Part shown: in pieces, positions 15,159 through 57,431 of the stretch
How positions within the stretch are numbered: the stretch's first letter is position 1
How the letters are laid out: every line of letters begins with the position of its first letter
Source of the DNA: Candidatus Omnitrophota bacterium
GTDB taxonomy: Bacteria; Omnitrophota; Gorgyraeia; Gygaellales; Profunditerraquicolaceae
Direction of reading: 5' to 3'
DNA length: 64,000 bases
NCBI GenBank assembly: GCA_026387455.1
Contig: JAPLLR010000016.1
Span: 6,358-70,357 of the forward strand
Translations under genes and position numbers: made by a program
The notes under the pieces: generated by a model
Databases searched by the model: none
What the model was told of the DNA's origin: nothing
What the model saw: the letters and a program-made list of their open reading frames with translations, nothing else

Positions 15159-15188
15159 GCTTGTGTGATATAATAGGCAAAAATTATA

Positions 15189-15286
15189 CACCTGGCCTAA
15201 TAGGAATGGCCAGTATTTCATCCTAGAAAGGATGCACCCAGCATACCTTTTAGCTGGGGTGCAACTTTCTATGAAAGGAAGTGAGT
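15189..15286 (+). repeat. Modular hairpin repeat (CACCTGGCC-TAATAGGAA-TGGCCAG; TCATCCTAGAAAGGATG; GCACCCAGC...GCTGGGGTGC) forming the 5' leader of the downstream gene.
   Basis: The same module order recurs at 20191-20288 and 34392-34662, and partial versions occur at 530-582 and 60156-60209. Confidence 0.6.
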
Positions 15287-19204: not shown

Positions 19205-20205
19205 ATGCCCCAAGAAGCAGGTATCCAGGAAAGAGCTAGGAAGTATTCGCTAAAGAAATATTCTCTGGCTCTGTTGGATACCGTAGTTACGCTTGCCCTG
19301 CTTCTGATTTTTTTGGCTACAGGTTTATCCCGGGCTCTTACTGAGGGCCTGGGATTTATTTTTTCAAGCAGCTATTTCACTGTTCCTGTTTACCTGCTCG
19401 TTGTAATTCTTGCCTACTATTTGATCACTTTTCCACTTACTTTTTACCAATCCTATACTCTTGAGCACGAATTTTCTCTGTCCCGGCAAAGCGTAAAATC
19501 GGGGTATTCTGGATATTTTTCTCTATTGTCATGGCTAATCTTTTGCCTGTATTAATCATACCTTTATTTTTTAAATATAAGAAACTTGAGGATGAAACAC
19601 TGCGCCAGAGGATAATTGTTTTAGCGGGCAAGATGAAAGTAAGGGTTCTGGATGTTTTTGAGATAGACTTAAGCAAAAAGTCTTTAAAAGGCAATGCCGC
19701 TTTCGTGGGGGCGGGGAACACGCGAAGAGTGCTTTTGGCAGACACCTTAAAAGATAAATACACCTATGAGGAGATAGAGGTGATTCTGGCGCATGAGTTC
19801 GCGCACTACCGCTTGAAGCATTTATTGAAGCTAATATTGGTCAATTCCGCGGTGACTCTGGTAACTTTTTTTGTAATTTATGCCACCAGCAGTTCGGCGC
19901 TGTGGTTGTTTGGGTTGTCTTCGTATCTAGAGCTTGCGGCTTTACCATTACTCTTTTTTTATTTTGCGGTTTTTGGTGTAATTTTGCAGCCGTTTGGGGC
20001 TTTTATCAGCCGCTGTTTCGAGCGTAGTGCTGATAGGATGGCCATACAGGTGACCGGCCTGAAAGACGCCTTTATCTCGACCATGGATAAGTTGGGTGAT
20101 CAGAATCTTTCGGATCGTAATCCGCACCCGCTTATTAAATTTTACTTTTTCGACCATCCGCCCATAGATGAGCGGATCAAGATGGCAAAACACCTGGCCT
20201 TATAG
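19205..20205 (+). pseudogene. M48-family (Ste24/HtpX-like) zinc metalloprotease, disrupted by a frameshift near 19531-19555 and an apparent internal deletion of about 40 codons.
   Basis: ORF 19205-19555 carries the N-terminal LEHEFSLSRQ region. ORF 19531-20205, in another frame, carries PLFFKYKKLEDETLRQRI...ILAHEFAHYRLKH (HEXXH). The two transmembrane helices normally between them are missing. Confidence 0.55.
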
Positions 20206-20288
20206 GAAAGGCCAGTGTTCCGTCCTAAAAAGGACGCACCCAGCCTACTTATTAGCTGGGGTGTAGCTTTCTGCGTAAGGAGGTTAAG
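20191..20288 (+). repeat. Modular hairpin repeat (TTATAGGA-loop family) overlapping the stop codon of the M48 gene and forming the leader of the next gene.
   Basis: CACCTGGCC-TTATAGGAA-AGGCCAGTG, then TCCGTCCTAAAAAGGACG, then GCACCCAGC..GCTGGGGTG, then AGCTTTCTGCGTAAGGAGG. The TAG stop of the M48 CDS lies inside the TTATAGGA loop. Confidence 0.6.
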
Positions 20289-20696
20289 ATGAAAAGAATA
20301 GCTGGGTTTTTGTTTGTATTATTTTTTGTTGTGTCTTCTGGTTCATCAGTTTTCGCACAAGGGTTCAGGGGCATGAGTGATGTTGTCCCACCGCCATTTG
20401 TGATTTATCCTAGTGAGCGTGCTGACATAAGCGGCAAAGACGTGCTCACCCTTAAGTGGAAGACCCCGGGAAGTTTTGATATTGACCACGTGGAGTTTAA
20501 GCTGTATAAAGGATATATCACCGCGGATTCCAACTTGGTCTATAAAGAGGATGTTGATCCGGTTGAGTCTGAGGTGGATGTGAAGGCCGATCTTTTGCAA
20601 GATGGCCAGACTTACACCATGTATTTACGTTCGATATCACGCGAGGGCTACAAAAGTGACCGGGTGTTTAATTCTTTTCAGGTAATTAAGAAATAA
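20289..20696 (+). CDS. Small secreted hypothetical protein (signal peptide).
   Basis: The N-terminal hydrophobic stretch ends in AQG. A strong AAGGAGG RBS is present. No known motif. Confidence 0.5.
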   Translation: MKRIAGFLFVLFFVVSSGSSVFAQGFRGMSDVVPPPFVIYPSERADISGKDVLTLKWKTPGSFDIDHVEFKLYKGYITADSNLVYKEDVDPVESEVDVKADLLQDGQTYTMYLRSISREGYKSDRVFNSFQVIKK

Positions 20697-21816
20697 ATTC
20701 AAGGATTATTCTTGCTGCACGGGAGGCGGCACCGGGTTCGCCGAGGGAGGATTTGACGAGGGCGAGATTCGAAGTGATTTCTTGAAGTTTCGCTGGATTG
20801 CGCATGATCTGTAACACTTCATGCGCAATTTTTTTAGGGATAGCGCCAAGCTGAATAAATTCCGGAATAATTTTTTTACCTGCTACAATATTCACCATTC
20901 CAATATAGGGCAATTTCACTTGTGGTCGGTATAGAAGGTAATTCAACAGGTTCATCTTATAGACCACGCAGAAAGGTTTTTGCATAATCGCGGTTTCCAG
21001 GGTGGCTGTGCCTGAGCAGACCAGCGCAAAATCCGCGATATTCAGGCAGTCATAAGTTTTCCCTTCCGCGATTTTCACTTCTACTTTAAAGCGATCGATG
21101 ATCCGGTTGTAAGTTTTCCAGTCAACCGAAGGTGATTTGACGATCACGAATTGCGCATTCATTTGTTCACTTATCAGTTTGACTGACTCTAACATGATGG
21201 GGAGGATATTGTTGATTTCTTGTTTGCGCGAGCCGGGAAGTAGGGCGATGGTCGGAGTATCTTTGGAGAGTTTTAGGTGGTTTAGAAATTCATCCTTCTG
21301 TACGGTAGGCTTTACTATGTCCAGTAGCGGGTGCCCCACAAAATCTACATTCATCCCGTATTTTTTGTAGAATTCCTTTTCGAATTTAAAGAGCACAATC
21401 ATTTTTCGGATATATTTCTTAATCGTCTGCACCCTGCCCGGCCTTGAGGCCCAGACTTGGGGGCTCACGTAATAGATGGTTGGTATAGTGTTATTGAGCT
21501 CTTTGGCCAGGCGCAGGTTAAAGCCGGAGAAATCAACGAATATTACCGCATCGAATTTTTCTTGATTGATAGTATAGAGAAGGAATTTTTTTAATTCGAA
21601 GAACTTGGGGAGTTTCTTAAAGACATCAAAAATCCCGAATACCGATAACCCTTTTATATCGTAAAGGATCTCAGCACCCGCCTGGCGCAGAAGTTCACTG
21701 CCCACGCCGAAGACTTTAAGCTCTGGGTTGATTTTCTTTAGGGCGCTGGTGAGATTTGCCGCGTGAAGAACTCCTGAGGCCTCTCCGCAGATGATCAGAA
21801 TCTTTTTTTCTGCCAT
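20686..21816 (-). CDS. lpxB: Lipid-A-disaccharide synthase.
   Basis: The N-terminus KILIICGEASGVLHAANLTSAL and the overall GT-B glycosyltransferase pattern are typical of LpxB. Confidence 0.8.
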   Translation of the reverse strand: MAEKKILIICGEASGVLHAANLTSALKKINPELKVFGVGSELLRQAGAEILYDIKGLSVFGIFDVFKKLPKFFELKKFLLYTINQEKFDAVIFVDFSGFNLRLAKELNNTIPTIYYVSPQVWASRPGRVQTIKKYIRKMIVLFKFEKEFYKKYGMNVDFVGHPLLDIVKPTVQKDEFLNHLKLSKDTPTIALLPGSRKQEINNILPIMLESVKLISEQMNAQFVIVKSPSVDWKTYNRIIDRFKVEVKIAEGKTYDCLNIADFALVCSGTATLETAIMQKPFCVVYKMNLLNYLLYRPQVKLPYIGMVNIVAGKKIIPEFIQLGAIPKKIAHEVLQIMRNPAKLQEITSNLALVKSSLGEPGAASRAARIILEFIS

Positions 21817-22718
21817 ATCTGTTTTTGGATTTCTAAGGCGACTTTGAGGGCTTCGCGGGCAACCGGACCAGAGACAAGGGGCTCTGTATGTGAGGTGACA
21901 CAGTCAATAAACGACTGGAGTTCTTTTTGTAGGGGTTGTTCTTTTTCTATTGGCAGGTCCTGTTTAGTGATCTGCGCCCCATCTTTTCTGTAAACACAGG
22001 CCTTAGCCTCTTTATAATCCAGCGATATATAGGTATCTTTCTGGAAAATGCGGATTTTGCGCAGCCACTCATCAGAGATGCGGCTTGCGGTAAGATTGGC
22101 GATGCAGCCGTTTTTAAAGGTCAGCCGGGTGTTAGCGATGTCTTCAAAGTGGGTGAGGACCGGTACGCCCACGGATTCGATTTTCTTAATCGGCGAGTTA
22201 ACAAGTCCTAAAACGATGTCAATATCATGGATCATCACATCCAAGACCGCTCCGATATCAAGGGAGCGGTTGGGGAATGGGCTAAGCCGGTGGCATTCAA
22301 TGAATTTTGGTTCTTTGATTAGCTTAAGGGTAGCGGCAAAAGCAGAGTTGAAGCGCTCGATGTGGCCGACCTGTAAAATCAGCTTATTTTTGCGGGCAAT
22401 TTGAATCAGCTGGTCAGCCTCTTTAAGCGTAGGGGTGAATGGTTTCTCAACCAGAGCGTGAATATTGTGCTTCAGGCAGTCAGCGGCGATTGAGAAATGC
22501 AGCTTGGTGGGTGTAGCGACGCTGACCGCGTCGACTTTGCCAAAAAGCTCCCGGTAATCAATGTAGCCCGGGACATTCAAAGTGTGGGATATTTCTTCCA
22601 GTCGCTTAGGGTCACTATCACATACCGCGCTCAAGAAGCAATTCGGTATTTCCTTATAAATCTTTGCGTGTATGCTGCCCAGATGCCCGACGCCGATCAC
22701 CGCAATCTTTATATCCAT
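21795..22718 (-). CDS. Gfo/Idh/MocA-family NAD(P)-dependent oxidoreductase.
   Basis: Rossmann N-terminus IAVIGVGHLGSIHAKIY and the EKP motif (ALVEKPF). It overlaps the lpxB start by 22 nt. Confidence 0.75.
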   Translation of the reverse strand: MDIKIAVIGVGHLGSIHAKIYKEIPNCFLSAVCDSDPKRLEEISHTLNVPGYIDYRELFGKVDAVSVATPTKLHFSIAADCLKHNIHALVEKPFTPTLKEADQLIQIARKNKLILQVGHIERFNSAFAATLKLIKEPKFIECHRLSPFPNRSLDIGAVLDVMIHDIDIVLGLVNSPIKKIESVGVPVLTHFEDIANTRLTFKNGCIANLTASRISDEWLRKIRIFQKDTYISLDYKEAKACVYRKDGAQITKQDLPIEKEQPLQKELQSFIDCVTSHTEPLVSGPVAREALKVALEIQKQIWQKKRF

Positions 22719-22807
22719 AGGGGAATCATAGCAGACTCGTTGCCTTGTTTCAACTAATATTTAACCGTGGGTGCCGAGGCTTGCTTTTCGCTAAATAATT
22801 ATATATG

Positions 22808-23160
22808 TTATTGTTTAGCGGGTCCTGCCTTGGCTTGTCCTGCGCGCGGCTTTTTGCCGTGCTCGGATCAAGCCAAGTCACCCGCTAAACCTACCATTTA
22901 TCAGCAAGCTTGTTGTTAGCGGCTGACTTGGACTGCACCTTGCTTTATCGGATAAGCAAGTGTGCTCTTCTGGGCTGATTTCGAGTGGTTCCTCGGACGC
23001 CCCGCTCAAAGCGACCCTCGTCACCCTTGACTGAAAGTTTCAGTTGGCGGGAGGCTTGGCTTGGTTTCGAGCAGGGCTAGAAATGAGCGCAGGTGCGGCA
23101 CAACGCTGGGCCGCACCAAGCGTCCCTGCGAGAAACAAGACAAGCCGACCAGCCATGAGT
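22808..23160. repeat. GC-rich highly structured element of about 350 bp, copy 1 (second copy at 52048-52455).
   Basis: Long nested inverted repeats (GTTTAGCGGGTCCTGCCTTGGCTTG ... CAAGCCAAGTCACCCGCTAAAC; GGTGCGGCACAACGCTGGGCCGCACC) and terminal inverted-repeat-like ends. Its GC content is far above the flanking DNA. Confidence 0.7.
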
Positions 23161-23223
23161 GATTGTAGTTTTGAATCAAAGATATCTCGACAAAGAGGAG
23201 CGAATGTGGTATAGTGCAACCTT

Positions 23224-25017
23224 ATGAAAAACTACAATAAGCTATTTATTTTCGCCCGTCCCTATACCGGACAGCTGATTATTTCCGGCATCTTCATGGG
23301 CATTGTGACTTTCTTCGATATCTTCCGTCTGAGCGCTATCGTGCCGGTTATCGACAGGATCTTCACTAATCGACAGATTACCTTCAATAACGGCAAGTTT
23401 CCGGCATTTGTCCAGAATATACTTAATTACCTGAATAATCTTGAGCCGATCAAGGTGCTGTATCTTATCCTTATTATCATGCCTATCGCTCTGATTATCC
23501 GGTCGGTTTTCGAATATCTGCAGTCCTATATAATGTCTGATGTGGGTCAGAAAGTCATCCGCGACGTCCGGAATATTGTTTACGAGAAGTTGCAGGTATT
23601 ATCTTTGGAATATTTCAGCCAAAGGAGGAGTGGCGAGCTGGTCTCCCGCATCACCAATGACGTAAAGCTGATCGAAAACGCCGTTTCTTACGCTCTTACG
23701 GATTTAGTTTATCAGGGCTTTACGGTTATCTGCTTCGCTATCACTATATTTTTCATAAACTGGAAACTGGCGCTTTTGGCTTTTGTGGTGTTGCCGGTTG
23801 TCGCGGTGCCCATGGTCACCGTCGGCAAGATGCTGCGCAAGCTAAGCAAGAGCTCGCAGGAAAAGATGGCGGATATCAACTCGCTACTAGTCGAAACATT
23901 CATTGGAGTGCGTATTGTGCGTGCTTTCTGCGCCGAGGCAAAAGAAGTGGCTAAGTTCCGCGGCCAGAATCATGATTATTACAAGCTGGCTATGAAATCC
24001 ATAAAGCGCATGCTTATTTTAGGTAACGCTACGGAGCTGGTAGGCGTGGCAATGGCTATCTTGATCATTTATATCAGCGGCAGACAGGTTATTTCGGGTG
24101 AATTGTCTTTCGGCGCGTTTGCCCTGTTCATGGCAGCTTTATTATCGCTGATCAAACCCTTTAAGAAATTAAGTCAGGTAAATTCCATTCTGCAGCAGGC
24201 TATGGCGGCTAGTACCCGTATTTATGAAGTGCTGGATGCGCCGGTGAGCGTCAGGCAGAGCCCACAGGCAAAAGAAATCAATGATTTTTCCTCTGGTATC
24301 CGTTACGAAGGAGTTTATTCCACCTATGGCGAGCACGATATACTTAAGAATATTAATCTGGAAGTCAAAAAGGGTTTTATGTTGGCGATTGTGGGTCCCA
24401 GCGGCTCGGGAAAGAGCACCATGGTGGATCTGATTCCGCGTTTTTATGACCCCAAAAAGGGAAAGATTTATATTGATGGAGTGGATATCAAGGATTTGAC
24501 TTTAAAATCACTTCGCCTGAAGATCGGAATGGTCACCCAGGAGACCATTCTTTTTAACGAGACTATAAAAGGAAATATACTCTACGGCAAGCCGGATGCA
24601 ACTGATAAAGAGATTGAATCAGCGGCTATCCAGGCACATGCCCATGAATTTATTAAGAATCTGCCCAATGGGTATAATACAGTGATCGGAGACAGGGGGA
24701 TGAAGCTTTCCGGCGGAGAGCGCCAGAGAATAGCCATTGCCCGCGCGCTTTTGAAGAATCCGCCGATTTTACTCCTTGATGAGGCGACTTCGCAGTTGGA
24801 TACCGAGTCGGAGCGTATCGTGCAGGAAGCTTTAGACCGGCTAATTCAGGGAAGAACGGTATTTGTTATTGCGCATAGGCTTTCGACTGTGCGCAATGCT
24901 CATAGAATTGTGGTTTTAGACCGCGGAATGATCGCGGAAGAGGGAACCCACCAGGAGTTGATCCAGAAGGACGGCCTCTATAAGCGGCTTTATTCCATGC
25001 AGGAACTCCAGAAGTAA
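23224..25017 (+). CDS. msbA: ABC transporter ATP-binding/permease protein, lipid A export flippase family.
   Basis: An N-terminal six-TM domain is followed by an ABC ATPase with Walker A (GPSGSGKST), signature (LSGGERQRIAIARAL) and Walker B (LLLDEATS) motifs. Confidence 0.75.
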   Translation: MKNYNKLFIFARPYTGQLIISGIFMGIVTFFDIFRLSAIVPVIDRIFTNRQITFNNGKFPAFVQNILNYLNNLEPIKVLYLILIIMPIALIIRSVFEYLQSYIMSDVGQKVIRDVRNIVYEKLQVLSLEYFSQRRSGELVSRITNDVKLIENAVSYALTDLVYQGFTVICFAITIFFINWKLALLAFVVLPVVAVPMVTVGKMLRKLSKSSQEKMADINSLLVETFIGVRIVRAFCAEAKEVAKFRGQNHDYYKLAMKSIKRMLILGNATELVGVAMAILIIYISGRQVISGELSFGAFALFMAALLSLIKPFKKLSQVNSILQQAMAASTRIYEVLDAPVSVRQSPQAKEINDFSSGIRYEGVYSTYGEHDILKNINLEVKKGFMLAIVGPSGSGKSTMVDLIPRFYDPKKGKIYIDGVDIKDLTLKSLRLKIGMVTQETILFNETIKGNILYGKPDATDKEIESAAIQAHAHEFIKNLPNGYNTVIGDRGMKLSGGERQRIAIARALLKNPPILLLDEATSQLDTESERIVQEALDRLIQGRTVFVIAHRLSTVRNAHRIVVLDRGMIAEEGTHQELIQKDGLYKRLYSMQELQK

Positions 25018-34391: not shown

Positions 34392-34662
34392 CACCTGGCC
34401 TTATAGCACCTTGGCATATAGGATTGTCAAGGTGCGTCCCTTCTGGGACGGATAAGCCAGCTGCACAAACAGTGCGCGTTCGCCCAACCTATTGGGCGAG
34501 GCGTGTTCCGTCCTAAAAAGGACGCACCCAGCATACCTTTTAGCTGGGGTGCAGCCTTCTGTTACACCCAACTTTAGCCCCTTCCTTAAAAGGTACAGGA
34601 AGAGCTACCCCTCTGGGGTTATAGGAAAAGTTGGTGTTGTGCTTACTGCACAAGGAGAGAAA
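34392..34662 (+). repeat. Roughly 270-bp compound array of hairpin repeat modules forming the entire metK-ahcY intergenic region and the ahcY leader.
   Basis: Contains at least eight stem-loops, including the CACCTGGCC-TTATAG, TCCGTCCTAAAAAGGACG, GCACCCAGC..GCTGGGGTGC and CCTTCCTTAAAAGGTACAGGAAG modules shared with other intergenic regions. Confidence 0.6.
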
Positions 34663-49228: not shown

Positions 49229-49591
49229 ATGATGATGAAACGCAAAAGCAAAATAAAAGTTCCGTATTACGAGCATCTGATGGCTGATTTGGAGACCGGC
49301 TGCATCGTCGATGATATTCAGCAAGTCGAGGATATTCTTTACGTGGCCGCAAAGAAAGCCAATAGTACTCCGTTAAAAGTCGCGGTGCATAAATTCTCCC
49401 CTCATGGCATAACCGGCGTGATCCTCCTCGCCGAATCCCACATCGCAATACACTCCTGGCCTGAGTTCAATTACCTTGCCGTAGATATTTTCACCTGCGG
49501 TAGGAATGGCCGGCCGCGCAAAGCTTTGGAGTATATTCAGAAGTGCTTCCAAGCCAAGGAAATAAAAGTCCAGGAAATAAAAGAAGGATAA
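49229..49591 (+). CDS. speH: S-adenosylmethionine decarboxylase proenzyme (SpeH type).
   Basis: GVILLAESHIAIHSWPEFNYLAVDIFTCG is the class 1 AdoMetDC self-processing region. Confidence 0.8.
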   Translation: MMMKRKSKIKVPYYEHLMADLETGCIVDDIQQVEDILYVAAKKANSTPLKVAVHKFSPHGITGVILLAESHIAIHSWPEFNYLAVDIFTCGRNGRPRKALEYIQKCFQAKEIKVQEIKEG

Positions 49592-49596
49592 CCCCC

Positions 49597-50484
49597 ATGC
49601 AAAGAGGCGTGACCTTTAAGACTGATGAGTGGTTTATCGAGAATTCTTTTCCCGGGGTGCGGCGTTGCAAGACCGACGCCTTCCGCATCCAGAAAAAGAT
49701 CCTAAGCGGTAAGACCAAGTATCAGGAATACTTAATTTTTGAGAGTCCGGGATTCGGCAAGATCCTTGCTCTTGACAGGATCATCCAGCTGTCTCAGTCC
49801 GATGAGTTTATCTACCATGAGATGATCGCCCATGTGCCGCTATTGACTCACTCCGATCCAAAGCGATTTCTCGTTGTTGGCGGAGGAGACGGTGGAGTAT
49901 TGCGCGAGAGCGTCAAGCACCCCTTAAAAGAGCTTTATATGGTGGATATCGATAAGGAAGTCGTGGCTATGGCTAGAAAATATTTGCCTTTTATATCAAA
50001 CGGCGCATTTAATGATTCGAGAGTTAATCTTTTGTTTGCAAATGGCAAGACTTTCATAAAGGAGCATAAGAATTATTTTGATTGTATTGTGATAGATTCC
50101 ACTGACCCCGTCGGTCCGGGTAAAGCGTTGTTTGAGGCTTCATTCTATCGCGATGTAGCCAAGAGCCTGACCAAAGATGGTGTGGCGATATTCCAACTAG
50201 GGCCATTCTTAGATTTTAACCTGATAATTAAAGGAACAGCCAAGAAGTTAAAGCGGTTCTTCCGCTATGTGAATCTTGAGCGCTTAGCTATGCCGTCTTA
50301 CAGCTGCGGCTGCGAGTATTGTTTTATTCTTGCCTCTAAGACCGTTGATCCTACGAAGCTAAGCGTGTCCGTCATCAGGGGCAGGGCAAGAAAAAGGCTT
50401 GGGTCTAAGCTTGATGCCCTCAAGTATTATACTCCCGAAGTGCACCATGCCAGCCTGGTCATGCCAAAGCTCTGGCAGCTTTAA
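49597..50484 (+). CDS. speE: Polyamine aminopropyltransferase (spermidine synthase).
   Basis: FLVVGGGDGGVLRE...VDIDKEVV...IVIDSTDPVGPG. The start is taken at the ATG after a GAAGGA RBS, just downstream of the speH stop. Confidence 0.85.
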   Translation: MQRGVTFKTDEWFIENSFPGVRRCKTDAFRIQKKILSGKTKYQEYLIFESPGFGKILALDRIIQLSQSDEFIYHEMIAHVPLLTHSDPKRFLVVGGGDGGVLRESVKHPLKELYMVDIDKEVVAMARKYLPFISNGAFNDSRVNLLFANGKTFIKEHKNYFDCIVIDSTDPVGPGKALFEASFYRDVAKSLTKDGVAIFQLGPFLDFNLIIKGTAKKLKRFFRYVNLERLAMPSYSCGCEYCFILASKTVDPTKLSVSVIRGRARKRLGSKLDALKYYTPEVHHASLVMPKLWQL

Positions 50485-50487
50485 ATA

Positions 50488-51489
50488 ATGAAGCGCAGTT
50501 TTAATATTTTAGTCCTTGGAAACGGCCGGATTGCCCGCGCCGTTTCTTTTTATCTGGGTAAGTCTCGCCTCGTAAAAAGCGTTACTCTTGACTCATCCGG
50601 AAAAAATGCCGCTAAATTCGACCTTTTGTTGGGGGCTTTTCCCGGAGACCTCGGCACAATCCCCCTGAGGCTCGCTTTAAAGCACAGGATTGACCTTATC
50701 GATATTTCCGACGTAGAGCCACAGGTGTATCTTAAGAATAAGCGCCTGATCGAAAGCCGCGGGATCACCGTGATTCCCTGCTGCGGTTTTGGCCCCGGGC
50801 TGATAAACTTTATTTTAGGAAGAGAGCTCGCTGATCGGAAGAATATTGATACTGTCCAGATCAAGGCTGGCTCTTTATCGCCCAAGCCCAATTATTTTCC
50901 ATTTCTTTGGTGTTTTGAGGATTTGGTGCTTGAACACAGAATTCCCTCCTGGCAGGTTATTAACGGTAAGACTTGTAAGTTTGGGCCGTTTGCTCGTTGT
51001 CAGAGAGAGAGTTTTTTTGGTATTGAGTCGGAAAGCTATTTTGCCCAGAGCGGTTTTGAGAATATGATGCAGGGTGTCCGGGTGAAGAATTTCTCTTTCC
51101 GGGTAGTGCGGCCGAGAGGCTTTAGAGAGTTTTTTTATTATCTTGAGAGCGAAGGGTTTCTAACAAGCGCGAATATGCTGATCACCAAGAATATTGTCGA
51201 GAAAGATGTACGGGATAACATCACTCTGGCTACCATTAGCCTGACAAAAAAGCGTAAGAAAATCATTTGGCTGATGAAGTCGCAGTCAAGGCGCAAAGAG
51301 CGCCTTAATTCCATGCAAAAGATTACCGCAGTCACTCCCGCTGCCATGGCGCAAGCGCTTATGTCAGGAAGCATCAAAGAGAAGGGCCTGCTTTTCATGG
51401 AAGAGCTGGGAAAAGACGCGCGTTTATTTGATTATTTGCTTAAGGCAAATAGAATTGAAGGTATTATTATTTCCAGAAAGGGTATTTAA
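50488..51489 (+). CDS. Saccharopine dehydrogenase-like NAD(P)-binding protein; possibly related to carboxy(nor)spermidine dehydrogenase or homospermidine synthase.
   Basis: Rossmann N-terminus ILVLGNGRIARAV and a CCGFGPGLINF motif resembling the saccharopine dehydrogenase family. It lies directly after speE. Confidence 0.45.
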   Translation: MKRSFNILVLGNGRIARAVSFYLGKSRLVKSVTLDSSGKNAAKFDLLLGAFPGDLGTIPLRLALKHRIDLIDISDVEPQVYLKNKRLIESRGITVIPCCGFGPGLINFILGRELADRKNIDTVQIKAGSLSPKPNYFPFLWCFEDLVLEHRIPSWQVINGKTCKFGPFARCQRESFFGIESESYFAQSGFENMMQGVRVKNFSFRVVRPRGFREFFYYLESEGFLTSANMLITKNIVEKDVRDNITLATISLTKKRKKIIWLMKSQSRRKERLNSMQKITAVTPAAMAQALMSGSIKEKGLLFMEELGKDARLFDYLLKANRIEGIIISRKGI

Positions 51490-51492
51490 TCT

Positions 51493-52026
51493 ATGATCAT
51501 GCATTCATATATCAGCGATAAAGTCAAAGTCGTGACTTCTTCAGTTGACCGCCGAGGAGTGTTCGCTCTTAAGCTTATCAAAAAAGGAGAAGTTATTTCC
51601 GTCTACGGGGGCCATATCATCACCCAGAAGGAATACAATAATTTGGCAAAAAGCTGCTTTCGCCACATCCATGATTATGCGATCAAGGTCGCCGACGGAT
51701 TTTATCTGGTTTCTTCCAAAGGCGGACGACTTGAGGATGATGATTTTTTTAATCATAGCTGCGATCCCAACGTCGGCATCAAAGGTCACTTGTTGATGGT
51801 GGCGATACGGGATATTTTGCCCAAAGAAGAGCTTACTTATGATTATGCTATGACTGATGCTGCCATGGATTACGCCTTCAAATGCAACTGTCAGGCTTCT
51901 AACTGTCGTAAGGTGGTCAGTGGCAGCGATTGGAAGAAGCCTGCTATTCAGCGTAAGTACAAAGGATTTTTCTCCTGGTTCGTGCAGGACAAGATCGACC
52001 GCTCCAAATCTTCCCGCAGAAAGTAA
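51493..52026 (+). CDS. SET-domain protein (putative protein-lysine N-methyltransferase).
   Basis: NHSCDPN and ELTYDY motifs plus a post-SET cysteine cluster (CNCQASNC). Confidence 0.75.
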   Translation: MIMHSYISDKVKVVTSSVDRRGVFALKLIKKGEVISVYGGHIITQKEYNNLAKSCFRHIHDYAIKVADGFYLVSSKGGRLEDDDFFNHSCDPNVGIKGHLLMVAIRDILPKEELTYDYAMTDAAMDYAFKCNCQASNCRKVVSGSDWKKPAIQRKYKGFFSWFVQDKIDRSKSSRRK

Positions 52027-52047
52027 TCCGTCCACTATTTTACTTAT

Positions 52048-52455
52048 ATTATTGTTTAGCGGGTCCTGCCTTGGCTTGTCCTGCGCGCGGCTTATTGCCG
52101 TGCTCGGATCAAGCCAAGTCACCCGTTAAACCTATCAGCCATTATAAATTAGCAAGCTAATTTCTTCAGCTGGCGGGAGGCTTGGATTGATTTCGAGCGG
52201 GGTATTGGACGCCTCGCTCAAAGCGACCCTCGTCACCCTTGACTGAAAGCTTCAGTTGGCGGAAGGCTTGGCTTGGTTTCGAGCAGGGCATGGAAGCCCC
52301 GAGCGGGCAAGGTTGCCCCTCATTTCACATATAGGGCAGAGCGAGGGGCTGGAAATGAGCGCAGGTGCGGCACGCTGGGCCGCACCAAGCGTCCCTGCGA
52401 GAAACAAGACAAGACTACCGCCATGAGTCCGCGAGAAACAGGACAAGGCAGACGC
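52048..52455. repeat. GC-rich structured element of about 400 bp, copy 2 (copy 1 at 22808-23160). It carries an extra 55-bp insertion and a tandemly duplicated 3' end.
   Basis: The 5' 90 bp are near-identical to copy 1, with the same nested inverted repeats. The small ORFs predicted on it have no support. Confidence 0.7.
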
Positions 52456-52508
52456 TAAGTTTGCATGGCTTAGGGTGATATTTTAGCTAAATAAAAGTTG
52501 ATTTAGGC

Positions 52509-53465
52509 TTGATTTATGCTAAAATCAATCTTCCCATGATCAATATAAATAAGGTCAAAACATACTCGCTTAAGACGCGCCTGAGCAAGGTAAATTTTAA
52601 GGATTTTGCCAAGTCTCCGGCTAAGAAGAAGAGCTTTGTTTCTTTTTACGGCTCTTTGCCGAATATCTTAAAAGCCAAAGACTTACGTTGCGTTGTTGAG
52701 GCAATTGTCAGGGCCCATAAGTCCAAGAAAGCTGTGATTTATATGGCCGGCGCGCATGTGATCAAATGCGGCCTGAACCCGGTTTTAATAGAGCTCTTAA
52801 AGAAGAAAATTATCACCTGTATTTGCTTAAACGGCGCCGGTATAATTCATGATTTTGAGTTGGCTTTTCAGGGTAAGACTTCCGAGGATGTTGCGGAAAA
52901 TCTTAAAGACGGCAAATTCGGCATGGGTAAAGAGACCGCGGATTTTCTAAATGAAGCGGTGAGCGTTGGTGTTGTTCAAGGGTTTGGCCTTGGCCAGGCA
53001 GTGGGCAAAAAAATCAGCGATTCTAGGCTTCCTCACAAGAATTTAAGTTTGCTTTACAACGCTTATAGGTATAACGTCCCGGTCTGCGTGTTTGTGGCTA
53101 TTGGCACGGATATTATCCATCAGCATCCTTCTTTTGATGCTTCGATGACTGCCGAGGGGTCATTACGCGATTTTCATGTACTGGTTGAAAATATCTCAGG
53201 ACTGAATAACGGCGGCGTAGTTCTGAATTTCGGTTCGGCGGTGATTATGCCGGAAGTTTTTTTAAAGGCGCTTAATCTGGCGCGTAATCTGGGTAAATCC
53301 GTTAAGAATTTTACTACCGCAAATTTTGATATGATCTATCAATATCGCCCGGCGCAGAATGTGTGTCTGAGGCCGGTGCTTTCCGGGGGCATTAGTTATT
53401 ACATTATTGGCCATCACGAGATAAATTTACCGTTACTGGCGCAGGCTGTAATAGAAAAGATATGA
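52509..53465 (+). CDS. Deoxyhypusine synthase-like protein.
   Basis: Blocks HVIKCGLNPVLIELLKKKIITCICLNGAGIIHDFE and VPVCVFVAIGTDIIHQH parallel the DHS motifs SSGIRETIRYLV...VLVTTAGGVEEDL and IPVFSPALTDGSLGDMI. Confidence 0.55.
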   Translation: MIYAKINLPMININKVKTYSLKTRLSKVNFKDFAKSPAKKKSFVSFYGSLPNILKAKDLRCVVEAIVRAHKSKKAVIYMAGAHVIKCGLNPVLIELLKKKIITCICLNGAGIIHDFELAFQGKTSEDVAENLKDGKFGMGKETADFLNEAVSVGVVQGFGLGQAVGKKISDSRLPHKNLSLLYNAYRYNVPVCVFVAIGTDIIHQHPSFDASMTAEGSLRDFHVLVENISGLNNGGVVLNFGSAVIMPEVFLKALNLARNLGKSVKNFTTANFDMIYQYRPAQNVCLRPVLSGGISYYIIGHHEINLPLLAQAVIEKI

Positions 53466-54369
53466 AGAATCTGAAAAGCATAATCCAGAAATTCAATAAA
53501 GCCCGGGTTTTAGTAATCGGAGACCTAATTCTTGATGAATATATCTGGGGTTCGGTAGATCGCATCTCTCCTGAAGCTCCCGTACCGGTAGTCTGGGCAA
53601 ATAAGCGTACTAATGCCCCGGGAGGGGCGGCAAACGTGGTACAAAAGGTATTTTAGTCGAGCCTAATAGGCTTACAACGGTAAAGACGCGTATTCTCGCC
53701 GGTCATCAGCAAGTAGTGCGGGTTGATTGGGAGCATAGGCACTCACTCAGCAATGAACTGAATAAAAGAATCACCCGGTTTGTGCGTAAGCACATTAAAG
53801 ATTTTGACGCGGTGATAATCGAGGATTATGGCAAGGGGGTGATCAATAAAGAATTGCTGGAAGAGCTCACGCCCTTGGCGCGTAAATATAAAAAGATCAT
53901 TAATGTCGACCCCAAGGAAGAGCATTTTCAGTATTATTCTAATGTCACTTCGATTACCCCTAATCGCAAAGAGCTGGAAAATGCGGTTAGGAATTTAAAG
54001 ATCAAAGATATGACCAATACCTTTAAGGTCAACACTGACAAGCTGTTTACGAATAAAGATATCGATCTGGCGGCAGGCCAAGTCTTAAAATATTTAGGTT
54101 TGGATTCTATATTGGTCACGCTGGGAGAGCAGGGGATGAAGTTATTTGAGAAGGGCGGACGCGTAGAACATATTCCGACGGTAGCTCAGGAAGTGTTTGA
54201 TGTTTCCGGTGCCGGGGATACGGTAATAAGTACTTTTACTTTGGGGCTATGTGCGGGAGCCAGCAGATCTGAAGCAGCACACATCGCTAATTATGCTGCC
54301 GGCATCGTTGTGGGCAAAGTCGGTACCGCTGCCACTGATAGAATTGAACTTTTAGAGAGGCTGGGTTAA
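53462..54369 (+). pseudogene. hldE: D-glycero-beta-D-manno-heptose-7-phosphate kinase (HldE domain I / RfaE, PfkB family), disrupted by a frameshift plus an internal deletion of about 40-45 codons around 53640-53680.
   Basis: Frame 2 gives KARVLVIGDLILDEYIWGSVDRISPEAPVPVV...GGAANVVQKVF and then a stop. Frame 1 continues TTVKTRILAGHQQVVRVDWE...DVSGAGDTV. The segment normally between these is absent, and a small AGCCTAATAGGCT hairpin sits at the junction. Confidence 0.55.
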
Positions 54370-54370
54370 T

Positions 54371-55111
54371 ATGGAAGTGATCGGAGTAATTCCGGCGAGG
54401 TATTCCTCGACGCGTTTTGAGGGCAAAGTTTTGGCGGATATCCTGGGTAAACCCATGCTCCAGCACGTATGGGAGCGGGCAAAGCAAGCGCTGGTCCTGG
54501 ATGACCTGATTATTGCCTGCGATAACGAGCTGGTGGCTTCAGTTGCTAAGGGCTTCGGTGCAAAAGTCGTGCTTACCTCCAAGGACCATATCTGTGGTTC
54601 GGACCGTATCATTGAGGTAGTGAACCCGCTGGATGTGAAGATTATCATCAATATTCAGGGCGATGAGCCGCTGGTGCATCCCATGATGATCGACAGCGTT
54701 GCCCAGACGCTTCTAAACGACAAAAAGATAAATATGGCTACACTGATGAAGAAAATCGAGGACCCTAAGGACATTTTGGACCCTAATGTGGTCAAGGTGG
54801 TGGTGGACAAGTTTCACTTTGCAATGTATTTTTCCCGCTCACCTATACCGCATCTAGCCAAGAGTTCTGATTGTCAGGACCCGGTGTATTATAAGCATAT
54901 CGGGCTTTACGGTTACACCAAGGATTTTCTGTTTACTTTTAAGAACCTCCCGGTGTCGAATCTTGAGAGGATAGAGAAGCTTGAGCAGTTGAGAGTTTTG
55001 GAAGAAGGATTCCGTATCAAGGTCATCGAGACTAAGCACGATACTATCGGAGTTGACACTCCGGATGATCTGGAGAAACTTAAGAATTATCTGGGAACGC
55101 ACAGGATATGA
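54371..55111 (+). CDS. kdsB: 3-deoxy-manno-octulosonate cytidylyltransferase (CMP-KDO synthetase).
   Basis: IGVIPARYSSTRFEGKVLADILGKPMLQHV. Confidence 0.9.
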   Translation: MEVIGVIPARYSSTRFEGKVLADILGKPMLQHVWERAKQALVLDDLIIACDNELVASVAKGFGAKVVLTSKDHICGSDRIIEVVNPLDVKIIINIQGDEPLVHPMMIDSVAQTLLNDKKINMATLMKKIEDPKDILDPNVVKVVVDKFHFAMYFSRSPIPHLAKSSDCQDPVYYKHIGLYGYTKDFLFTFKNLPVSNLERIEKLEQLRVLEEGFRIKVIETKHDTIGVDTPDDLEKLKNYLGTHRI

Positions 55112-55923
55112 TGAAGACCGTTACAGTAGGAAACGTTAAGATTGGCGAAAGAAATCCTCTGGTGCTGATCGCCGGGCCGTGCGCTATCGAATCCGAAAGC
55201 CACAGCCTCCAGATCGGTAGGGCGATTAAAGAGATCGCGGCAAAGTTACACATTCCTTATATTTTTAAATCTAGCTTTGATAAGGCTAACCGGATGTCCA
55301 TTGAATCTTACCGCGGCCCGGGGATAAAAAAGGGCTTAGAGGTTTTAAAGAAAGTAAAACAGAAATTAAAAGTCCCTATACTTACCGATATCCACTGTTC
55401 TAAAGAAATAAACGAGGTAGCCAAGGTAGCGGATATTATCCAGATACCGGCGTTTCTGTGCCGCCAGACAGATATTGTAGTGGCAGCAGCGCGCACGGGA
55501 AAAGTGGTGAATATCAAGAAAGGTCAGTTCTTGGCGCCGTGGGATATTTTGCCAATTATCAAAAAAATTGAATCTACGGGAAACCGGCGGATTCTTTTGA
55601 CTGAGCGGGGCGCAAGCTTTGGCTACAATAATTTAGTAACTGATTTTCGGGCGCTTAAAATAATGCGTGATTTCGGGTATCCGGTGATTTATGATGCCAC
55701 ACATAGCATTCAGACTCCGGGAGGTAAGGGCGGCAGTTCTGGAGGAGAGCGTCAATTCGTCGAGGGGCTTTCCCGGGCAGCAGTGGCTTTTGGCTGCGAC
55801 GGGTTGTTCCTTGAAGTGCATCAGGATCCGGATAAGGCTCCCTGTGACGGGCCTAATATGATTGATCTTATGCAGCTTGATGAGCTTTTGCAGCAGGTGA
55901 AGAAAATCGAGGCAGCGTTATGA
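55108..55923 (+). CDS. kdsA: 3-deoxy-8-phosphooctulonate synthase.
   Basis: LIAGPCAIESE...KSSFDKANR. Confidence 0.9.
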   Translation: MMKTVTVGNVKIGERNPLVLIAGPCAIESESHSLQIGRAIKEIAAKLHIPYIFKSSFDKANRMSIESYRGPGIKKGLEVLKKVKQKLKVPILTDIHCSKEINEVAKVADIIQIPAFLCRQTDIVVAAARTGKVVNIKKGQFLAPWDILPIIKKIESTGNRRILLTERGASFGYNNLVTDFRALKIMRDFGYPVIYDATHSIQTPGGKGGSSGGERQFVEGLSRAAVAFGCDGLFLEVHQDPDKAPCDGPNMIDLMQLDELLQQVKKIEAAL

Positions 55924-56888
55924 AGACTGATGTTATAAAGCGGGCCAAAGAAGTTTTTGATATCGAGGCGGATGCTATCCGGGCCTTAAAGCCGCGTTTA
56001 GGGAAAGGGTTCCGCAGGGCAATAGATATTTGCTTAAAGACAAAAGGCCGAGTGGTGGTCAGCGGTATGGGTAAGACCGGAATCATTGCCCAAAAGCTTT
56101 CCGCGACCTTAGCTTCAACCGGAACTCCGAGCTTATTTTTGCATACCGCGGAAGCTATTCACGGAGATTTGGGCAAAGTTACGGCTGATGATGCGGTGAT
56201 CGTGATCTCAAACAGCGGCTCTACCGAAGAGATGCGTCAGCTTCTGCCGTTATTAAAGAAGATCGGCTCAAAAGTGATCGCCATGACCGGGAATCTTAAA
56301 TCGGTGCTGGCTAAATATAGCGATGTGGTTTTGGATGTTTCGGTTAAGAAAGAGGCCTGCCCGTTGGGTCTGGCGCCAACGGCGTCGACCACCGCCACTT
56401 TAGCCATGGCTGATGCGTTGGCGGTGTGCTTGCTGGAATGCAAGGGTTTTAAAGAAAAAGATTTTGCTTTTTTTCATCCCGGAGGCACTTTAGGCAGGCG
56501 CTTGCTCTTAAAGGTGGAAGATATTATGCGCCGCGGCACAGCTAATCCAATAGTTAGCGAAAATAAGTTAGTTTCAGACGTTCTTTTAAAGATCACTCAG
56601 GCCCGTGCCGGATCAGCTACGGTGGTGGATGGACATGGTAAATTAACGGGTATATTCACTGACGGAGACTTGCGCCGGCATCTGGAAACCTTTGTTGATT
56701 TGCCAAGGAGAAAAGTTAAAGAAGTGATGACTAAGAATCCTACGGTAGTGGATAAAGAGATGCTGGCTGTGGAGGCTCTTAGGATTTTACGCGAAAAGAA
56801 AATTGACGAGCTACCTGTAGTGGATAAATCCAGGCGGCCGGTGGGGCTTCTGGATGTGCAGGATCTTTTGAAGGCGGGATTGGTATAA
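55920..56888 (+). CDS. kdsD: Arabinose-5-phosphate isomerase (SIS plus tandem CBS domains).
   Basis: A SIS domain (VVSGMGKTG) is followed by two CBS domains. Matches the KdsD/KpsF family. Confidence 0.85.
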   Translation: MKTDVIKRAKEVFDIEADAIRALKPRLGKGFRRAIDICLKTKGRVVVSGMGKTGIIAQKLSATLASTGTPSLFLHTAEAIHGDLGKVTADDAVIVISNSGSTEEMRQLLPLLKKIGSKVIAMTGNLKSVLAKYSDVVLDVSVKKEACPLGLAPTASTTATLAMADALAVCLLECKGFKEKDFAFFHPGGTLGRRLLLKVEDIMRRGTANPIVSENKLVSDVLLKITQARAGSATVVDGHGKLTGIFTDGDLRRHLETFVDLPRRKVKEVMTKNPTVVDKEMLAVEALRILREKKIDELPVVDKSRRPVGLLDVQDLLKAGLV

Positions 56889-57431
56889 GTGTTTGAGAAC
56901 GAGATAAAATCAAATCTTAGGGATAAAGCCAGAAAAGTAAAGCTGCTTTTGCTGGATGTGGATGGCGTCCTGACTGACGGTCGGATCATTTATGATTCCC
57001 GCGGCCGCGACTCGAAGTTTTTTGACGTGCATGACGGGCTGGGCGTGTATCTCTTAAAGAAAGCCGGGATACCCACTATTCTGATTACTGCTAAGGGCTC
57101 GCGCGCCATAAAGCCTCGCGCCCGGGATATGCGGGTGGCGGAAGTTTTTTCCGATGTATCTCCTAAATCAGCAGTTTTGGATAAGATTTTAAAGAAATAT
57201 AACGTTATCATCGATGATATCTGTTTTGTGGGTGATGATCTGGTGGATCTATGCATGATGAAAAGGGTTGGGTTTCCTATCGCGGTTTTTAACGCTGCTC
57301 CTGAGATTAAGCAGTCAGCTGCCTATATTACCATAAAAACCGGTGGGCGTGGCGCAGTGCGCGAAGTGGCGGAACTTATTTTAAAGTCGCAGGGCAAGTG
57401 GGAAGAGGTTTTGAAGGGTTATGATATTTAA
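56889..57431 (+). CDS. kdsC: 3-deoxy-D-manno-octulosonate 8-phosphate phosphatase (HAD-IIIA).
   Basis: LLLDVDGVLTDGRIIYDS motif. GTG start overlapping the kdsD stop. Confidence 0.8.
   Translation: MFENEIKSNLRDKARKVKLLLLDVDGVLTDGRIIYDSRGRDSKFFDVHDGLGVYLLKKAGIPTILITAKGSRAIKPRARDMRVAEVFSDVSPKSAVLDKILKKYNVIIDDICFVGDDLVDLCMMKRVGFPIAVFNAAPEIKQSAAYITIKTGGRGAVREVAELILKSQGKWEEVLKGYDI

Follow-up and report, generated by a model that had tools for sequence, protein, structure and literature searches.

Do five co-oriented, adjacent genes of a Candidatus Omnitrophota bacterium constitute one pathway, or do they belong to two? The question is raised by positions 49229–53465 of a 64,000-nucleotide (nt) stretch of its metagenome-assembled genome (GenBank assembly GCA_026387455.1, contig JAPLLR010000016.1; the whole stretch is called the window below). 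These genes encode homologues of S-adenosylmethionine (AdoMet) decarboxylase (SpeH) and spermidine synthase (SpeE), a protein with a saccharopine dehydrogenase (SDH) fold, a SET-domain methyltransferase, and a deoxyhypusine synthase (DHS)-like protein. A preliminary description had treated them as a polyamine cluster that is interrupted by a large structured repeat. Our analysis divides the five genes into two separate units: Unit A (49229–52026), comprising the first four genes, and Unit B, which starts at 52536 with the DHS-like gene. We estimate a probability of about 0.8 for this division with the roles proposed below, namely, a polyamine operon beside a lipopolysaccharide (LPS) inner-core/heptose operon. 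The features of the locus are as follows.

49229..49591, plus strand: speH (speD), homologue of class 1b pyruvoyl AdoMet decarboxylase, 120 amino acids (aa); AdoMet_dc, TIGR03330
49597..50484, plus strand: speE, polyamine aminopropyltransferase/spermidine synthase, 295 aa; NF002010, TIGR00417
50488..51489, plus strand: SDH-fold gene, predicted NAD(P)-dependent amine oxidoreductase, 333 aa; Sacchrp_dh_C, AlphaFold2 (AF2) model and Foldseek
51493..52026, plus strand: SET-domain AdoMet-dependent methyltransferase with a post-SET Zn motif, 177 aa; Pfam SET
about 52040..52445, plus strand: repeat copy 2, modular, strongly structured, and dispersed, filling the gap between the two operons
52536..53465, plus strand: DHS-like gene (GSU2086 family, DHS fold), 309 aa; NF052581; first gene of the putative LPS inner-core operon

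Two units in one locus

Pfam and NCBIfam scans matched each of the five open reading frames (ORFs), all on the plus strand, to the family for which it had been named. All five ORFs and the intervening repeat were found as described, and the earlier observation is therefore confirmed. The statement that the repeat interrupts a cluster is inaccurate; the repeat sits in the intergenic gap of two different operons. The start codon of the SET gene is located 3 nt past the stop codon of the SDH-fold gene, and a 509-nt gap separates the SET gene from the DHS-like gene. The mechanically called ORF of speE (49543–50484) begins with a GTG at 49543, and its orthologues of 292–296 aa indicate ATG 49597 as the likely start. 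The DHS-like gene has an alternative TTG start at 52509 in addition to the ATG at 52536.

The neighborhoods of homologous genes keep the two units apart. The SDH-fold gene was followed through 83 loci (80 metagenome loci and three annotated contexts). For the DHS-like gene, the loci of 81 species from many phyla were scored from fixed target coordinates with Pfam scans of the neighbors. The DHS-like gene was nearby in 0/83 SDH-fold loci, and homologues of speH, speE, the SDH-fold gene, and the SET gene were found within 8 kb of the DHS-like gene in 0/81 loci. Apart from this genome, Units A and B are neighbors only in two close relatives (L168 and L169, with 92–94% protein identity), which share the order speH-speE-SDH-SET-gap-X-PfkB-kdsBADC-lptC-lptB, where X is the DHS-like gene. 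Because this order is common to the closest relatives at such identity, the juxtaposition is real, yet it is clade-specific. The gap measures 509 nt here, 460 nt in L168, where it contains a diverged repeat copy, and 218 nt in L169, where the repeat is mostly absent. A repeat-filled gap that varies between close relatives supports separate units. A promoter-like site at 52498–52525, just ahead of the start codon of the DHS-like gene, was detected as a weak consensus result.

Unit A, a polyamine operon of Omnitrophota

Unit A is a conserved, lineage-specific polyamine operon of four genes that is independent of pyridoxal 5'-phosphate (PLP). Of the testable loci, 62–65 of 65 have speE immediately upstream of the SDH-fold gene, 51 of 57 have speH upstream, and 34–35 of 67 have the SET gene immediately downstream. 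In operons of this type, the stop codon of one gene often overlaps the start codon of the next. The three annotated contexts have the orders speE-SDH-SET, speH-BpsA-speE-SDH-GNAT, and speH-speE-SDH-SET.

SpeH scored 114 bits with AdoMet_dc (Pfam) and 120.5 bits with TIGR03330 (NCBIfam; cut-off 75.65). Its processing/catalytic motif, LAESHIAIHSWPE...FTCG, fits the S63/H68/C83 pattern described previously (PMC10407285), and the equivalog match together with the self-processing Ser and the catalytic His and Cys identifies a class 1b AdoMet decarboxylase homologue. SpeE scored 283.9 with NF002010 (cut-off 260) and 257.9 with TIGR00417 (cut-off 249.55), as a spermidine synthase equivalog does. By homology, SpeH would supply decarboxylated AdoMet, and SpeE would transfer an aminopropyl group. 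Ornithine decarboxylase (SpeDC) activity is known for SpeD homologues of Omnitrophota (PMC10407285), and the product of speH is possibly an ornithine decarboxylase of this type instead of an AdoMet decarboxylase. No second AdoMet decarboxylase homologue was found inside the window.

Clusters of SpeD-SpeDC-SpeE and a lack of PLP synthesis have been reported for Omnitrophota (Li et al. 2023, PMC10407285). Those clusters belong to the same phylum as Unit A and have the same speD-speE core, and all of the enzymes are independent of PLP. In contrast to their SpeD-SpeDC fusion, Unit A has a single SpeD-type domain. A term search of the same paper returned no mention of saccharopine dehydrogenase or the SET domain. 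Unit A is built only from PLP-independent enzymes, which fits the reported lack of PLP synthesis. The SDH-fold and SET genes make good candidates for polyamine chemistry of a new kind. The earlier suggestion of unusual polyamines is plausible for the four genes of Unit A.

The SDH-fold protein, which is 100% identical to NCBI protein NTZ92_01800 of "Candidatus Omnitrophica bacterium", matched Sacchrp_dh_C of Pfam marginally (31.9 against a cut-off of 31) and matched no model in the NCBIfam scan. It has an N-terminal GxGRIA Rossmann motif. The AF2 model (predicted local distance difference test score, pLDDT, 92) shows the two domains of the SDH fold, the N-terminal one being a Rossmann domain. 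Foldseek placed L-lysine 6-dehydrogenase (LysDH) PH1688 (3abi) first with a template modeling (TM) score of 0.83, followed by the SDH domain of AASS and carboxyspermidine dehydrogenases (CASDHs); the TM scores to 5l78 and 8h4z were 0.80–0.83. The profile of the family reached 3abi with an E value of 1e-38. The protein aligns over its full length with LysDH, CASDH (8h4z and 8deb; TM 0.80 to CASDH), and saccharopine reductase/dehydrogenase, but the sequence identity is only 14–22%. The 175 homologues detected are 40–60% identical and nearly all named Omnitrophota or Omnitrophica, with one labeled Deltaproteobacteria. The family thus appears to be essentially confined to Omnitrophota.

Assignment as a CASDH was considered and rejected. 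In addition to the missing NCBIfam match, the identity to CASDH structures is 14–15%, and the protein is shorter (333 aa) than CASDH (about 390–400 aa). The CASDH route would replace speE, whereas the SDH-fold gene is coupled to it in nearly all of the testable loci. No carboxyspermidine decarboxylase gene was seen beside the SDH-fold gene in loci with annotated neighbors. We infer that the SDH-fold enzyme works at a terminal amine or aldehyde group of a substrate or product of SpeE. It may catalyze a reductive amination that yields an amine precursor without PLP, or it may form or oxidize a secondary amine (compare carboxyspermidine dehydrogenase). If so, amines would be formed without PLP in a step that is coupled to SpeE.

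The SET protein scored 63.7 bits with Pfam SET (cut-off 22.4). The AdoMet/catalytic motifs and the post-SET Cys cluster of SET domains are all present, with invariant residues Asn87, His88, Cys90, Tyr118, Cys131, Cys133, and Cys138 (NHSC, TYDY, and post-SET CxCx4C). An invariant acidic EDDD patch precedes NHSC, and a C-terminal extension is also conserved. The best sequence matches in the PDB are the SET domain of MLL1 (E value of 6.5e-13) and ASH1L, and BurB is matched as well (1.6e-8). These enzymes share the canonical motifs with the SET protein of the window. In contrast to them, it is minimal (177 aa), carries the EDDD patch and the C-terminal extension, and is encoded in a polyamine operon. 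BurB is a SET enzyme that methylates free methionine (methionine S-methyltransferase); therefore, a small-molecule amine is a chemically credible substrate for the SET protein.

The SET subfamily has 173 members with 54–94% identity and is restricted to Omnitrophota. A member with 54% identity is still encoded in a speH-bpsA-speE-SDH-SET operon with overlapping genes, while a relative with 42% identity is not found in such an operon. In about half of the 67 testable loci, translation of the SET gene is coupled to that of the SDH-fold gene, which bears out the proposed link to polyamine genes. The SET gene is a conserved partner of the polyamine operon and, therefore, not a random neighbor. SET and BpsA, a synthase of branched polyamines, are rarely present together: 22 loci have only SET, 15 have only BpsA, two have both, and six have neither (Fisher p = 1.4e-5). 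In loci that lack SET, the gene after the SDH-fold gene encodes GNAT in 8/33 cases, secA in 12/33, and EF-P in 1/33. A GNAT gene often occupies the position of SET in operons of the BpsA type. SET, BpsA, or GNAT would be alternative end-modifying enzymes; the exclusivity of SET and BpsA may reflect either lineage or such alternative end-modifications.

The SET gene would be the optional last gene of Unit A, and its product would most likely N-methylate either an aminobutyl/aminopropyl amine of the polyamine product or a protein lysine. A polyamine as the substrate is a possibility that we rate as somewhat unlikely; it would make this protein the first SET-domain polyamine N-methyltransferase. 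It is quite conceivable, at less than even odds, that the enzyme is an ordinary protein-lysine methyltransferase that acts, for example, on a nucleoid or ribosomal protein or on one of the enzymes of the operon and is merely co-expressed, without methylating any polyamine. Its closest solved relatives are histone-lysine methyltransferases with the same canonical catalytic and post-SET motifs. Moreover, about half of the operons lack SET, and therefore, it is not essential to the polyamine chemistry. However, the gene is tightly coupled translationally to the SDH-fold gene among members at 54–94% identity, and the subfamily is limited to that context. Its slot is held by GNAT in other lineages, and it is anticorrelated with BpsA. 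The EDDD patch beside NHSC suits a polycationic substrate, and BurB indicates that SET enzymes can act on small molecules. These points against a protein-lysine substrate may be compatible with such a substrate as well.

The DHS-like protein and nucleotide-heptose synthesis

The downstream genes of Unit B are listed below. They follow the DHS-like gene on the same strand; the four kds genes serve Kdo biosynthesis.

53462..54369, plus strand: HldA-like PfkB heptose-phosphate kinase gene, disrupted; PfkB match on its 3' part
54371–55111, plus strand: kdsB; CTP_transf_3
55108–55923, plus strand: kdsA; DAHP_synth_1
55920–56888, plus strand: kdsD; SIS and CBS
56889–57431, plus strand: kdsC; Hydrolase_3

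The DHS-like protein belongs to the "GSU2086 family protein" model NF052581, with a score of 406.8 against a cut-off of 250 (residues 11–313, profile positions 2–301 of 301). In contrast, Pfam DS matches only residues 55–126 of 318 (29.8 against 27), and the models of DHS and the bacterial homologue SpeY fail: TIGR00321 scores 18.7 against 304, NF002006 scores 15.7 against 434, and NF002699 scores 17.1 against 500. By hidden Markov models (HMMs) and structure, the earlier gene identities are correct at the level of domain or fold. The AF2 model of the DHS-like protein, built from a 92-sequence alignment, has a pLDDT of 96.8. The top 23 PDB matches in Foldseek are all DHS (probability 1.0, 12–16% identity), with TM scores of 0.60–0.66, among them 7cmc, 1dhs, and 6p4v, so that the overall fold is of the DHS type (PF01916, TIGR00321). 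The TIGR00300 "LOR/SDH" protein 3c2q is also among the best PDB matches of the model.

Sequence comparison places the family closer to other enzymes than to DHS. The single DHS-like sequence gave no hits against the PDB. Only the family profile reached the C-terminal domains of ArgZ/AgrE (6juy, 5e-6; 6lrh, 2e-5), 3c2q (1e-4), and DHS (0.014–0.02). An hhalign comparison of the family alignment with human DHS covered only 41 N-terminal columns with an E value of 0.12 and served only to place the NAD-binding motifs. The family and its relatives share a dinucleotide-binding strand-helix-strand region, GAHVIKxG...NGAxxIHDxE. In the DHS-like protein, it reads GAHVIKCG...NGAGIIHD, compared with TSNLISSG...TAGGVEED in human DHS. 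The C-terminal domain of ArgZ/AgrE (Sll1336 and Alr4995) and 3c2q have the common motif GxxVIxxG...NA(I/A)xxHDxE, and Pfam ArgZ-like_C_2nd matches many members of the GSU2086 family. However, only about 65 residues align with ArgZ/AgrE, which act on ornithine in arginine catabolism, and the genes of the GSU2086 family never occur in that context. The C-terminal domains of ArgZ/AgrE and the archaeal TIGR00300 proteins are NAD-dependent enzymes of the ornithine cyclodeaminase type.

The catalytic residue Lys329 of human DHS forms an enzyme-butylimine intermediate. In the 92-sequence alignment, no Lys is conserved after position 244, where the catalytic Lys of DHS is expected as mapped by motif position, and therefore, the covalent butylimine mechanism is not retained. 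The alignment has one invariant residue (Glu108) and about 45 nearly invariant residues, many of which are His, Asp, Glu, Arg, or Lys. The conserved residues in the C-terminal part are Asn251, Asp265, Tyr270, Arg271, Asn275, Arg279, Gly292, His294, Glu295, and Pro299. The DHS-like protein differs from DHS in its low identity, in an HMM match of about 70 residues, and in its genomic partners, which are heptose genes rather than polyamine or eIF5A genes. Judged by these comparisons, the protein is related to DHS by fold and is not a DHS orthologue. The database label "deoxyhypusine synthase family protein" is thus misleading; it invites a hypusine or polyamine reading, while the context points to LPS heptose.

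The family is large and widespread. More than 8000 homologues were found, and the matches listed are mostly 309 aa in length, 73–94% identical, and named Omnitrophica. Among 1.84 billion representative proteins, 2442 are relatives, of which 496 have E values below 1e-30. In a GTDB scan, at least 599 species from many phyla carried the gene. The phyla that have it include Nitrospirota, Desulfobacterota, Acidobacteriota, Poribacteria, and Omnitrophota. Across Omnitrophota, the protein is 75–80% conserved, whether polyamine genes are nearby or not.

The genomic context connects the family with nucleotide-heptose synthesis. A gene of the GmhA, HldA, HldE, or heptosyltransferase type is located within four genes of the DHS-like gene in 54/81 loci. 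In 75 species-level loci, the preceding gene encodes SIS_2 in 25 and GT9 in seven cases, and the following gene encodes PfkB in 20, CTP_transf_like in four, and SIS_2 in three. A phmmer search of the DHS-like loci found kdsB at position +2 in 14, kdsA at +3 in ten, and kdsD at +4 in nine. The GSU2086 domain is also fused to CTP_transf_like (HldC type), PfkB (HldA type), PfkB plus CTP_transf (whole HldE), SIS_2 (GmhA type), and HAD/PNK3P (GmhB type) domains. The neighborhoods and fusions of the family thus cover gmhA, hldA/hldE, gmhB, and hldC. Another contig of Omnitrophota (L001) has the order GT9-GT9-X-PfkB-kdsB-kdsA-kdsD-kdsC-lptC-lptB, and the order and Pfam families of kdsB-kdsA-kdsD-kdsC are identical in L001, L168, and L169. 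In a Desulfuromusa locus (L042), the order is gmhA-X-hldE-gmhB with 4-nt overlaps on both sides of X, followed by a short-chain dehydrogenase/reductase (SDR). In Geobacter sulfurreducens, GSU2086 lies between hldE (GSU2085) and gmhA (GSU2087), and transposon sequencing (Tn-seq) showed the same electrode-growth defect for mutants of hldE, GSU2086, and gmhA (−3.1, −3.2, and −3.7, respectively) (PMC5585712). These contexts and fusions provide strong evidence that the DHS-like protein probably works in nucleotide-heptose synthesis.

Several other genes that recur beside the DHS-like gene, namely, hemC, hemD/cobA, selA, and those for TPR, Band7, NfeD, and histidine kinase proteins, were rejected as pathway partners and attributed to lineage synteny. 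In four unusual proteins (P0273, P0361, P0367, and P0242), the GSU2086 domain is fused to an ARMT1-like damage-control phosphatase together with a cytidylyltransferase-like domain (CTP_transf; 826 aa), to GH38 N- and C-terminal domains (723 aa), or to an RyR domain (408 aa), or is duplicated in tandem (679 aa). On plasmid pDCAR1 of Solidesulfovibrio carbinolicus (L170, 74521–93339), a PfkB (509 aa)-GSU2086-like-SIS triad is located in a glycan cluster, together with genes of the pseudaminic/neuraminic acid type, a split transketolase, three radical-SAM proteins, and methyltransferases. The surroundings suggest a role of the triad in non-LPS glycans as well.

Unit B would be an LPS inner-core operon that consists of the GSU2086-family protein, an HldA-type kinase, KdsB, KdsA, KdsD, KdsC, and Lpt genes. 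The DHS-like protein would keep the dinucleotide-binding fold of DHS and ornithine cyclodeaminase-type enzymes without the Lys of DHS. It would work with GmhA, HldA/HldE, and GmhB in the synthesis of nucleotide-activated heptose, and aminobutyl transfer from spermidine would not be its chemistry. By analogy with enzymes of these folds, we tentatively propose that a heptose phosphate or ADP-heptose is transiently oxidized in an NAD-dependent reaction, such as an epimerization, although we give this chemistry less than an even chance. Enzymes of the ornithine cyclodeaminase type perform a transient oxidation by bound NAD, as DHS does, and this use of bound NAD by DHS is one reason for the proposal. 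The others concern HldD, ADP-L-glycero-D-manno-heptose 6-epimerase, which is the fifth enzyme of the canonical ADP-heptose pathway. HldD catalyzes the only canonical step that is never fused to the GSU2086 domain, and no HldD-like SDR was detected in the LPS-rich window. A search with E. coli HldD as the query found none in the 64 kb of the window and three weak hits in 170 loci; this absence is weak negative evidence. HldD is dinucleotide-dependent and associated with gmhA, hldE, and gmhB in the same manner as the GSU2086 family, whereas its SDR fold is unrelated.

Several observations weigh against the two-unit reading or the roles assigned in it. The two units share one orientation and lie side by side, both here and in the two close relatives. 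The prediction of intrinsic terminators gave none behind the SET gene (a weak consensus result), and therefore, transcription may read through. The near-exclusivity of SET and BpsA may be a matter of lineage and not of function, and the Tn-seq phenotype in Geobacter could be a polar effect. The SDR behind gmhB in L042 weakens the view that the DHS-like protein replaces HldD; it scores 112 bits with TIGR02197 (cut-off 274.6), and its identity is uncertain, but it could be a divergent HldD. L042 already encodes all four canonical steps of ADP-D,D-heptose synthesis beside the DHS-like gene. The reactions proposed for the SDH-fold, SET, and GSU2086 families derive from fold and context.

The presence of all four canonical steps in L042 may alternatively mean that the GSU2086-family protein is not a heptose enzyme but a regulator or scaffold of LPS-core assembly that binds a nucleotide or ADP-sugar. 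The DHS-type domain binds ADP-containing ligands, and ADP-heptose would be one such ligand. We consider this improbable, since about 45 nearly invariant residues with many His, Asp, Glu, Arg, and Lys among them, very high identity across phyla, and fusions to catalytic domains form a pattern typical of an enzyme.

Far less likely is the hypusine-like pathway of the preliminary description, in which all five genes act together: the DHS-like protein would transfer the aminobutyl group of spermidine to a lysine of EF-P or an IF5A-like protein, and the SET protein would methylate it. Co-orientation and adjacency in three genomes, the DHS fold, and the typically lysine-directed activity of SET enzymes speak for it. 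It is contradicted by the lack of co-occurrence in the two sets of loci, the failure of the TIGR00321 equivalog, the absence of a conserved Lys in the C-terminal third, and contexts and fusions that point to heptose enzymes; moreover, the EF-P gene is downstream in only one of the 33 loci without SET. Equally hard to sustain is the idea that the DHS-like protein extends the polyamine operon as a SpeY-type homospermidine synthase producing sym-homospermidine or a related compound: homospermidine is indeed the product of the bacterial DHS homologues called SpeY, which cluster with homologues of SpeD (PMC10407285), and speH and speE are close by in the window, but TIGR00321 and NF002699 fall far below their cut-offs, the family profile is nearer to the C-terminal domain of ArgZ/AgrE than to DHS, no polyamine context appears in the 81 loci, and conservation across Omnitrophota is independent of polyamine genes.

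Searches of the literature for a connection of DHS to heptose, hldE, or gmhA, or of SET to spermidine synthase, returned nothing relevant. Units A and B would contain two families with well-defined but putative pathway assignments, neither of which appears in the literature searched. The chance is slightly below even that at least one of the following is true: the GSU2086 family is a fifth nucleotide-heptose enzyme (transient oxidation with NAD, e.g., a non-SDR epimerase), or the SDH-fold and SET proteins act on polyamines. In the former case, the GSU2086-family protein would be a previously unrecognized, widespread heptose component, and the textbook pathway would be revised. ADP-heptose synthesis has attracted study as a drug target, and the intermediates of the pathway act as innate-immune agonists. 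The heptose lead is directly testable in Geobacter, where a mutant phenotype already exists (PMC5585712).

The kinase gene and other LPS genes of the window deserve a short description. Compared by tblastn with the intact L001 orthologue, the HldA-like kinase gene is present as pieces in two frames (53462–53656 and 53716–54369). About 36 codons are gone (residues 62–98 of the L001 orthologue), with a change of reading frame near 53650. The orthologues in L168 and L169 are intact (336–337 aa). The disrupted gene is either a pseudogene or an assembly error. Genes for lpxB, a GFO/IDH/MocA oxidoreductase, and an MsbA-like ABC exporter are located at 20686–25017, about 27 kb upstream of the kds/lpt operon. 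Neither a GmhA-type gene nor an HldD-like SDR was noticed near the DHS-like gene, though the window is rich in LPS genes.

Structured repeats

The repeat in the gap between the two units has a second copy in the window. Related modules were found in other loci.

22799..23175, plus strand: repeat copy 1, between lpxB/GFO-IDH-MocA (minus strand) and the MsbA-like ABC exporter gene (plus strand)
L009, 7774–7932; L010, 7561–7720; L005, 3542–3599; L168, about 9545–9990: related repeat modules

The repeat is about 380–410 nt long, with a predicted folding energy of about −172 to −179 kcal/mol. The copies in the window are 90–96% identical in their shared blocks and differ by the insertion or deletion of entire modules. 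Both copies in the window are located directly 5' of LPS-related operons, one ahead of the MsbA-like exporter gene beside lpxB and the other ahead of the DHS-like/kds operon. A related module of 160 nt separates a GT9 heptosyltransferase gene from the DHS-like gene in L009 and L010, occurring once in each orientation. Other Omnitrophota have conserved the 3' module, with compensatory changes. An alignment of five sequences shows a long helix that closes the structure and a hairpin whose loop, ACGCUGGG, is conserved; compensatory changes occur in 8/38 pairs. No Rfam family was found in the whole window at the gathering threshold or for the repeat with E values up to 10. Two possibilities for its nature are a new structured RNA and a dispersed mobile repeat.

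A further repeat family, unrelated to the first, is present in three copies of 59–102 nt (15188–15289, 20190–20291, and 34503–34561), which are 81–92% identical and contain the internal hairpin GCACCCAGC...GCTGGGGTGC.

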